Source: a virus (Duplodnaviria > Heunggongvirae > Uroviricota > Caudoviricetes). From it: DNA of 64,000 nucleotides. Made by a program: the position numbers and the translations under genes. Location: the IMG/VR virus record IMGVR_UViG_2684623127_000006; one strand, written 5' to 3'. Position 1 is the first letter of the stretch, and each line of letters starts with the position of its first letter. A model generated the notes under the pieces. It saw only the letters and a program-made list of their open reading frames with translations. It was not told the origin of the DNA and made no database searches. Positions 12,700 through 13,130 of this stretch are shown one piece after another.

Positions 12700-13130
12700 G
12701 CTGTCACGTGTGGTCGTGCGCCGGACACGGATAAGAATCCGGTACTGACAGTTTACTGAAAGGATATTTCCCTGAAAAGTCAGTGCATAACGCGAAAGCG
12801 TACGGCGAAGCTCTTTCCCTTAGAAGGCTTGTCGTTAGATTTCTTCGAACGTGCGCTTCCGGTTGTGGCACTCCGCGAAATGGCGCGGCGGTAAGTATGG
12901 CGGGGTTATTCCTTCCCCATTGAGGACACCGGGTTGTCAGGTTGACCATACGCTTAAGTGACAACCCCGCTGCAACGCCCTCTGTTATCAATTTTCTGGT
13001 GACGTTTGGCGGTATCAGTTTTACTCCGTGGCTGCTCTGCCGCCCTTTTTAAAGTGAATTTTGTGATGCGGTGAATGCGGCTAAGCGCACGCGGAACAGT
13101 TAAAACCAAAAACAGTGTTATGGGTGGATT
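12700..13130. other. conserved ~430-bp non-coding element shared by both prophages (possible structured RNA / pL-nut-like region)
   Basis: Near-identical to 60185-60615; no plus-strand ORF >= 60 aa; minus-strand frames lack credible coding features. Confidence 0.5.

Follow-up and report, generated by a model that had tools for sequence, protein, structure and literature searches.

A covariation-supported RNA domain lies 5' of DicF in the untranslated dicBF spacers of two Escherichia coli O157:H7 prophages

What keeps some 430 bp of sequence, free of open reading frames (ORFs), nearly the same in two prophages whose genes on one side are unrelated? The question arises from a first-pass annotation of a 64,000-nt stretch of viral DNA (Caudoviricetes; IMG/VR record IMGVR_UViG_2684623127_000006), which we refer to as the window. 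Made from the sequence alone, that annotation marked two blocks, at 12700-13130 (here copy 1) and 60185-60615 (copy 2), and suggested for them an RNA structure, a small RNA (sRNA), a pL/nut-like region, a protein-binding array or a cis element for variable cargo. We find that the block is the known untranslated spacer between ydfC and dicB, present here in two E. coli O157:H7 prophages that each carry a Qin-type dicBF operon. Within it lie the sRNA DicF and, just 5' of DicF, a domain of about 115 nt with five helices and a pseudoknot that is clearly under selection for RNA structure.

We put at roughly 85% the probability that the block represents the long, untranslated dicF stretch of two early-left, PL-like operons under CI/DicA-type repression, and that it acts as RNA, not as DNA or protein. 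DicF has been under study since the 1980s. Because multiple dicF copies in O157:H7, as well as processing through RNase III and through RNase E, were published earlier, the block is a known locus; the locus and its multi-copy arrangement in O157:H7 are ordinary as a discovery. What interest remains lies in a structured domain that is unannotated and very widespread, and in the interchangeable modules that follow it on its 3' side.

Identity of the conserved block

The two blocks form a single collinear blastn match, 12715-13324 against 60190-60802, with 93.0% identity over 615 nt, which bears out the near-identity first reported for them. The limits originally given were roughly right (396 of their 431 positions are identical between the copies), with homology setting in at 12715/60190 instead of 12700/60185 and running past 13130, through the dicB start codon ATG (13220/60698) and into dicB. 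Ahead of dicB, copies 1 and 2 have ORF-free stretches of 505 and 508 nt, respectively, which agree at 479 positions. It is the left flanks that are unrelated, as had been said of one side: copy 1 is preceded by a 216-aa ORF (11795-12445, +) and a 72-aa ORF (12446-12667, -), neither with a Pfam match, and copy 2 by a ydfC-like ORF (59911-60129). Transcription of copy 1 dicF from the early-left promoter, if it occurs, has to cross the 72-aa gene in the antisense direction. Elsewhere on this side, region 59313-59468 of copy 2 matches the start of the DUF1391 region of copy 1 at 96.8%.

A scan with Rfam covariance models, one of the checks proposed in the first-pass annotation, recognizes DicF (RF00039) at full length in both copies, above the gathering score of 48 bits (75.0 bits at 12994-13045; 76.7 bits at 60472-60523). 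The DicF of copy 2 is exactly that of K-12 (match to K-12 locus L002 at 3282), and that of copy 1 is one base off, an A to G change in the apical part of the terminator hairpin. At the 3' end an intrinsic terminator-like site (13028-13043) runs into the U-run CCUUUUU, and the same hairpin appears in the structure line of the covariance model. Every feature of the DicF family that could be tested is present, namely the covariance score, the 53-nt sequence and the 3' terminator.

The neighbouring genes place DicF in a dicBF operon. Directly 3' of dicF lies dicB (Pfam DicB PF05358, E 6e-37 in copy 1 and E 1.7e-37 in copy 2), in agreement with the RefSeq annotation, and in copy 1 dicB is followed by a DUF1482 (ydfD-like) gene. 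Upstream of copy 1 are genes for an S24/helix-turn-helix repressor and a DUF1391 (ydfA-like) protein, with unrelated ORFs in place of ydfB/ydfC. The annotated order in the K-12 Qin prophage is dicC, dicA, ydfA, ydfB, ydfC, a 567-nt gap, dicB and ydfD, and the O157:H7 layout is alike; homology to K-12 begins at the same base, 60 nt past ydfC. In one phage record, 'DicF antisense sRNA' and dicB are annotated beneath the match. Nor is the block the proposed cis element for variable cargo: it makes up the constant dicF-dicB portion of the operon, and the variable genes are found upstream.

Compared over 701 nt, the window and E. coli O157:H7 strain TR01 show 100% identity. Matches to this 701-nt query occur in 4733 of 5426 complete E. 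coli genomes, with a median of 2 places per genome and a maximum of 10. A search of genome contigs for related loci by way of DicB returned two E. albertii loci only.

Published work on DicF supplies the framework for reading these copies. Multiple dicF/dicBF copies occur in different prophages of O157:H7 Sakai and EDL933, and the 53-nt DicF ends at the terminator, while a 72-nt form has a 3' end made by RNase III (PMC5069750). A 190-nt DicF species, which stably accumulates in stationary phase, requires RNase III, the 53-nt species depends on RNase E, an internal promoter is absent, and the operon promoter dicBp is lambda PL-like and repressed by DicA (PMC10448788); the RNase E dependence is also supported by PMC5069750. 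In K-12, DicF represses the ftsZ, xylR, pykA and manX mRNAs in an Hfq-dependent manner (PMC5069750, PMC10448788), and on the strength of sequence identity we assume the same of the copies described here. In agreement with the published absence of an internal promoter, a consensus scan of the + strand of the block gave no sigma-70 promoter; no tRNA or tmRNA-like gene was found in the block.

Fold and covariation of the domain

We collected about 290 instances of the domain (118 distinct sequences) from IMG/VR pattern scans and phage loci, and we tested its fold (Table 1) in two alignments. The first was made with MAFFT from 45 representatives, independently of any structure. In it, 96.4% of cells pair, compared to 35-58% when the partners are slid, and 13 of the 35 pairs change on both sides; shuffled alignments give 4.2 +/- 1.5 such pairs (0/500 as high) and the slid controls at most 7. 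The second alignment, built with a covariance model (CM) from 98 distinct sequences, has 97.7% of cells paired, with 35-57% in slid controls, and 16 of 35 pairs with changes on both sides.

These changes are spread over the fold. Helix P4 covaries as GGGUUGUCA/UGACAACCC, GGGUUACCA/UGGUAACCC, GGAUCACCA/UGGUGAUCC and GAGUUGCCA/UGGCAAC; hairpin P3a as CGGGG/CCCCG, CUGGG/CCCAG and CCAGGUG/CACCUGG; and helix P1 as GUUGUGGC/GCUGCAAC and GUUGUGGU/ACCACAAC. In the pseudoknot, GUAUGG of J2/3 pairs with CCAUAC of the P4 loop, and the variant GCAUGG/CCAUGC is found in sequences of the type carried by phage P1 and in one Qin-type sequence, along with G.U variants. As the stems covary, the loops and junctions (GGCGGUAAGUAUGGC; AGGUUGACCAURCGCYURAG) stay near-invariant across elements that are otherwise about 78% identical. 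Because many of the pairs are G.U, the fold exists only on the + strand RNA.

Model R1 of the domain finds exactly one copy per prophage in the window and no further copies there. Rfam 15 holds no family that matches the domain at E up to 10 with permissive filters, 12600-13300 yielding DicF, a sub-threshold STnc100 match and two noise hits outside the domain; Rfam scans of phage P1, Stx2c-type and other loci likewise give nothing on it. We found no description of the fold in the searchable open literature, which excluded the 1990 DicF processing paper and the P1 genome paper.

The comparative folding of homologs that had been proposed gives compensatory change in the domain and none in the 5' part of the block, where among 43 homologues 0 of 39 predicted pairs change on both sides. 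There, hairpin Ha has the stem GCCGGA/UCCGGY. The substitutions gggtgagcatacggcac versus ggataagaatccggtac, which the first-pass annotation had taken as paired, are mostly two haplotypes of its 12-nt loop and not compensatory. Beyond these, Ha has a G-C to G.U change in copy 1 and, in copy 2, a break from G-C to G.A; as loop haplotypes plus one wobble and one break, the supposed compensatory pair is rejected.

With the fold in hand, the readings of the block as protein-coding or as DNA can be weighed. That it encodes a protein, through a 95-aa minus-strand ORF (12704-12991) or a small plus-strand ORF, has next to no probability. The minus-strand frame is open and several phage GenBank records carry hypothetical proteins under the match; in PV340562, ON470619 and PP925841 the 'hypothetical protein' beneath the dicF block is probably a spurious minus-strand ORF through the structured domain. 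However, the 95-aa ORF has no Pfam match, plus-strand ORFs within the block reach at most 46 aa, and RefSeq/PGAP places no coding sequence in the block in either O157:H7 or K-12. Four indels (3, 2, 1 and 1 nt) separate the two copies, so that neither strand retains a reading frame. Among homologues, hairpin P3a varies in length by non-multiples of three, and the substitutions are pair-wise compensatory with G.U pairs specific to the + strand. The frame-breaking indels, the blank Pfam search and the PGAP annotation lead us to reject protein coding on either strand, and the initial remark that neither copy has a plausible plus-strand ORF stands.

An array of protein-binding sites at the level of DNA (operators, a nut-like site for an N protein, or an origin) is very improbable, although the block does sit in a PL-like operon beside the immunity region. 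Its direct repeats amount to one weak 17-nt pair and no family, which rejects an operator or repeat array. For a nut site, neither copy has a match to boxA (CGCTCTTA) in the stretch from the repressor gene to dicB (no search was made for boxB), and no N-like gene was identified among the annotated or Pfam-scanned genes of the operon. Moreover, covariation with G.U pairs needs a single-stranded transcript of the + strand. Among the functions initially listed for the block, the sRNA (DicF), the PL-like operon and the structural selection (at 12862-12976) are upheld; the binding array and the nut boxA are not.

Processing stems and 3' modules

How would DicF be released from this segment? Two long stems suited to RNase III lie at the expected distances. 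In the consensus fold, long stem 1 pairs CAUAAC.GCG.AAAGCGUACGGCGA with UCGA.ACGUGCGCUU.CC.GGUUGUG and has a hypervariable apical part; other element types keep the stem with compensatory sequence (AAGCGCACGG/CCGUGCGCUU, AAGCGCAUUCC/GGAAUGCGCUU and CACAACGAUGAGAGCAUUG/CAGUGCUCUCUUCGUUGUG). Because 190 nt counted back from the terminator lead to about 12856-12861, we infer for the published 190-nt RNase III product a 5' end there, in the 3' strand of long stem 1. The last bases of this strand, GUUGUG, also form the 5' strand of domain helix P1; given that the strand is common to both, P1 and long stem 1 are mutually exclusive, and cleavage by RNase III would release GUUGUG for P1. The second long stem is the outer stem of the dicB leader, which is inverted repeat I1; the leader as a whole folds with a minimum free energy of -64.5 kcal/mol (z -5.2). 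With a length of 72 nt, DicF would have its 3' end at 13064, within the outer stem, which would fit the published end made by RNase III.

By analogy with the K-12 literature, from which we take over the nucleases and the RNA species, the block very probably serves as RNA in the known dicBF processing route, for which we propose the following steps. A polycistronic transcript would start at a repressor-controlled upstream promoter. RNase III would cut long stem 1 to give an RNA of about 190 nt, made up of the 115-nt pseudoknotted 5' domain, the linker and DicF, and RNase E would then cut the linker to yield the 53-nt, Hfq-dependent DicF, the presumed repressor of ftsZ, xylR, pykA and manX. The DicF terminator hairpin would end part of the transcripts; in those that read through, RNase III would cut the second long stem, producing the 3' end of the 72-nt DicF and a short dicB 5' untranslated region.

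Several further pairings and repeats occur in the precursor. The DicF 5' seed GGUGACGUU (12998-13006) is perfectly complementary to AACGUCACC (13162-13170) in the dicB leader; by our own estimate about 0.5 such 9-mers are expected by chance, and DicF could pair with its own downstream mRNA through these 9 nt or the match may mean nothing. The conserved P4 loop CCAUACGCUU (12946-12955) resembles the 3' strand of long stem 1, ACGUGCGCUU (12849-12858), and could pair with the 5' strand, AAGCGUACGG (12796-12805). The 17-nt direct repeat lies at 12791-12807 and 12874-12890. Together, the loop likeness and the repeat hint at an internal duplication or at extra alternative pairings in the precursor. 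A short, conserved hairpin module, GGAUACCACCUCGCCUGACGUGGUUAAAAGCAGGCA (59858-59876; ~59850-59890), lies upstream of the ydfC-like ORF and recurs directly upstream of long stem 1 in loci L022, L330 and L035, with variants in L293 and L162; it marks an alternative left boundary (12786) in 17 Qin-type homologues.

The domain reaches well beyond dicBF operons. On its own it is found in 4416 of 5426 complete E. coli genomes (81%), where its 9456 occurrences, as many as 8 in one genome, overlie no annotated feature; O157:H7 strain TR01 has 7 copies. PLSDB has it in 510 plasmid records, the hosts being Escherichia, Salmonella, Klebsiella and Shigella; the majority are non-mobilizable, and those listed are chiefly of 90-120 kb, which is consistent with P1-like phage-plasmids. 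In distant blastn searches of phage genomes, the part just 5' of DicF turns up by itself, 88.6% identical in Stx2c phages and phage cdtI and 78.6% identical in phage P1, where the overlapping 68791-68892 (NC_005856), in the ban operon leader, is annotated as a 'dicF-like region'. The annotators of P1 had thus already noted the likeness of the ban leader to the dicF region. In Stx2c-type phages, operator-like repeats stand ahead of the unit, which lies about 300-400 nt past a cI-like gene; the early genes after it are of the yfdQ type, and no N-like gene is among them.

What follows the domain differs from one type of element to the next. Within 20-45 nt there is an intrinsic terminator in 11 of the 12 3'-flank clusters (it is missing in the L315/L295 type only), and both spacer and terminator differ between clusters. 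Rfam recognizes DicF in the Qin type alone among the types scanned. At least eight different spacer-plus-terminator modules stand behind the same domain (L330, L358, L360, L365/L126, L257, L293, L308 and L162); examples other than DicF are ..CCCAUGUUGAUUACCUUUUGGCGGGUAU.., ..CCCAUGUUGAUUACCUUUUGGCGGG.. and, in the Stx2c type, CUGCUUUGGCGGUACCAG..CUGGUACCGCU. Elements of one type conserve the spacer but vary in P3a, which looks like selection on a seed, and the non-DicF modules may be unannotated DicF-like sRNAs with other targets. Upstream of the domain, L308 has an unusually long, 127-nt tRNA-like gene (4506-4632, -) just 5' of the long stem 1 of its element (4218-4375, -), and a related stretch lies upstream of the element of L295.

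Table 1. Coordinates of the features of the two dicBF spacers in the window.
Feature	Copy	Position	Strand	Basis
Start of the conserved block: hairpin Ha (12720-12725/12738-12743, 12-nt loop) and a second hairpin (~12744-12783)	1	12715-12784	+	homology boundary, folds
Long stem 1, ~22 bp, putative RNase III substrate	1	12785-12867	+	consensus fold
Structured RNA domain	1	12862-12976	+	covariation tests; model R1, 179.6 bits
Domain helix P1	1	12862-12869/12969-12976		
Domain hairpin P2	1	12873-12888		
Domain helix P3	1	12890-12892/12928-12930		
Domain variable hairpin P3a	1	12902-12918		
Domain helix P4, conserved 19-nt loop	1	12931-12939/12959-12967		
Domain pseudoknot	1	12895-12900 with 12946-12951		
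Single-stranded linker GCCCUCUGUUAUCAAU, ending ..AUCAAU at the DicF 5' end; published RNase E site	1	12977-12992	+	
DicF sRNA, 53 nt, starts UUUCUGG, includes the intrinsic terminator hairpin	1	12993-13045	+	Rfam RF00039
dicB 5' leader; outer stem ~27 bp (13047-13073/13183-13210); hairpin CACCUGGAGGCACCAGG (13167-13183)	1	13047-13219	+	fold
dicB, 62-aa cell-division inhibitor	1	13220-13408	+	Pfam PF05358, RefSeq
5' hairpins and long stem 1 (60261-60344)	2	60190-60344	+	
Structured RNA domain	2	60339-60454	+	model R1, 180.8 bits
Domain helix P1	2	60339-60346/60447-60454		
Domain hairpin P2	2	60350-60365		
Domain helix P4	2	60409-60417/60437-60445		
Domain pseudoknot	2	60372-60377/60424-60429		
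DicF sRNA	2	60471-60523	+	Rfam, 76.7 bits; exact K-12 match
dicB leader, long outer stem 60529-60551/60666-60683	2	60525-60697	+	
dicB	2	60698-60886	+	Pfam DicB, E 1.7e-37

Other features of the window also recur in the two prophages. Downstream of dicB, between the DUF1482 gene and a recE-like gene, 48 nt (13632-13679 and 61111-61158) are 100% identical in surroundings that have diverged. Each prophage has one match to the sok antitoxin RNA, at 5598-5772 (-) and 52139-52313 (-), with 113.5 and 116.9 bits, indicating hok/sok-type toxin-antitoxin loci. The tRNA clusters at 1052-1304 (-) and 48974-49223 (-) consist of Arg(tct) and Met(cat) versus Arg(tct), Arg(tcg) and Met(cat), the first prophage being without the middle tRNA. 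The second prophage has an ALIL pseudoknot (RF01497, 120.9 bits; 53666-53782, +), a frameshift signal of IS3-family insertion sequences.

Candidate functions of the domain and known systems

What does the domain do for the RNA that it precedes? We tentatively favour, at somewhat less than even odds, the view that it is the constant body of a modular pro-sRNA. Helix P1 would form only once RNase III has removed the competing strand, and the folded domain would then shield the 5' end and set the pace and position at which RNase E releases the variable 3' seed-plus-terminator module.

The position of the domain also brings to mind a cis-acting control of transcription, in which it would modify RNA polymerase, as HK022 put does, or switch fold so that polymerase passes or stops at the following terminator, gating dicB and other early-left genes; the DicF-type sRNAs would then be a by-product or second use of the terminated leader. 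A strong intrinsic terminator does follow at 20-45 nt in 11 of 12 flank types, with early genes behind it, and in three backgrounds the domain is downstream of repressor-controlled early promoters (P1ban/P2ban, after the cI-like gene of Stx2c phages, and dicBp of Qin). The J2/3 sequence GGCGGUA is, in addition, the 5' half of many terminators and could compete for the 3' half. We nevertheless consider this function unlikely. The terminator of phage P1 is without the GGCGG motif, so the competing pairing is not general and is rejected as such. Unlike the expression platform of a riboswitch, the spacer that separates domain and terminator is variable in both length and sequence, and its conservation within each type is a better fit to a seed. 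Each prophage has one copy of the domain, on the PL side and none on the PR side, where HK022 has both putL and putR. Model R1 is also blank in HK022 22000-34000, a span taken from the published layout to contain the put sites, which are not annotated in the record: with filters off, the best score in 27600-34000 is 9.9 bits, which is noise, 22000-30000 gives no hit, and blastn returns noise only. Both CM and blastn thus reject the domain as a homologue of put, and we know of no antitermination activity for it.

Alternatively, the domain might be an autonomous RNA that binds a ligand or protein, or that acts in trans with its P4 loop on a target, its link to DicF being incidental. Near-invariant loops and junctions amid covarying stems are what such an RNA might look like, the 190-nt species is stable in stationary phase (PMC10448788), and the spread through 4416 of 5426 complete E. 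coli genomes and 510 PLSDB plasmid records also speaks for it. Against it, the data indicate no partner or ligand, no Rfam family lends the domain a function, and it was never found without an upstream stem or promoter, the terminator being missing only in the L315/L295 type. We regard this as quite unlikely.

The pro-sRNA interpretation and the wider RNA reading of the block have points against them in turn. Both copies may be silent under repression in this strain, and transcription into copy 1 is an assumption, given the minus-strand ORF that lies between the promoter side and the block. Support for the pseudoknot comes from G.U variants and a single covarying pair, the latter in at least two sequence types. 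Ascertainment accounts for part of the invariance of the P4 loop, since two of the three patterns used for collection lie inside that loop, although the versions from phage P1 and Stx2c phages, which were found by BLAST, also keep it. Finally, a pseudoknotted junction with near-invariant loops exceeds the needs of passive protection, which argues that the pro-sRNA interpretation is incomplete.

It is conceivable, with a chance somewhat short of even, that the domain represents an undescribed and widespread class of RNA in phage early leaders that has its own function, and to which DicF is joined as one of at least eight interchangeable 3' modules. Such a function may be the gating of sRNA release, the control of read-through at the terminator or the binding of a host factor. 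In that case the RNA of about 190 nt, and not the 53-nt DicF, would be the biological unit. So far DicF has been regarded as a 53-nt sRNA cut out of a 'long untranslated region', and the region that precedes it is a covariation-supported, pseudoknotted domain. If this domain has an activity of its own, the regulation of DicF and of the toxic dicB needs reinterpreting, a family of unannotated prophage sRNAs in pathogenic E. coli comes into view, and annotation of the Rfam type gains a new family.

The closest known system is the dicBF operon of K-12 Qin. It has the same order of repressor, ydfA-like gene, (ydfC), long untranslated region, dicF, dicB, ydfD-like and recE-like genes, and the entire 505-nt spacer aligns, from 60 nt past ydfC through to dicB. 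Copy 1 differs in the 216-aa ORF and divergent 72-aa ORF upstream of the spacer and in the single substitution in DicF. For the K-12 RNA itself, the Rfam family and the searchable papers deal with the 53-nt RNA and its processing sites and not with the fold of the 5' body.

The structured domain is shared by the ban leader of phage P1, where it scores 98 bits with R1, has ~78% identity and shows compensatory changes in P3a, P4 and the pseudoknot; there too the domain lies downstream of repressor-controlled promoters, P1ban/P2ban with their C1 operators, and is followed by an intrinsic terminator. In contrast to the Qin type, the promoter is only about 40 nt upstream, leaving no RNase III stem; the 3' module is another spacer and terminator, not DicF; and tRNA genes, tciABC and ban take the place of dicB.

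The dicB leader, for its part, recalls the Rfam family STnc100 (RF02076). At 34.7 bits (E 8e-6) it stays below the gathering score of 47, and it is a distant relative of the family, not a member. It aligns over the whole model (13043-13252), with the outer long stem in common as well as the hairpin CACCNGGAGGCACCNGGCAC, which shows a compensatory U-A/G-C change. True copies, unlike the dicB leader, sit in the late region; the window has two, at 110-282 (-) and 48028-48200 (-), with 104.7 and 101.8 bits, and the second lies downstream of the tRNA genes, immediately ahead of a 616-aa ORF (46040-47890, -). Phage P1 has a sub-threshold copy upstream of tciA (L125 3842-3961). It may be that STnc100 is not an sRNA but a general structured leader, of the RNase III type, for phage genes.

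The put RNAs of HK022 are known for RNA-mediated processive antitermination. Like the domain, they are folded RNAs in an early-operon leader, upstream of terminators and with no N gene following. CM and blastn comparisons find no similarity of sequence or structure between the two, however, and put consists of two stem-loops of about 70 nt, whereas the domain has five helices and a pseudoknot and is confined to the PL side. Compared with sRNAs that are processed from longer mRNAs by RNase E or RNase III, what sets this system apart is the large, independently conserved, pseudoknotted domain that precedes the sRNA and that is joined, in different elements, to at least eight different 3' modules.

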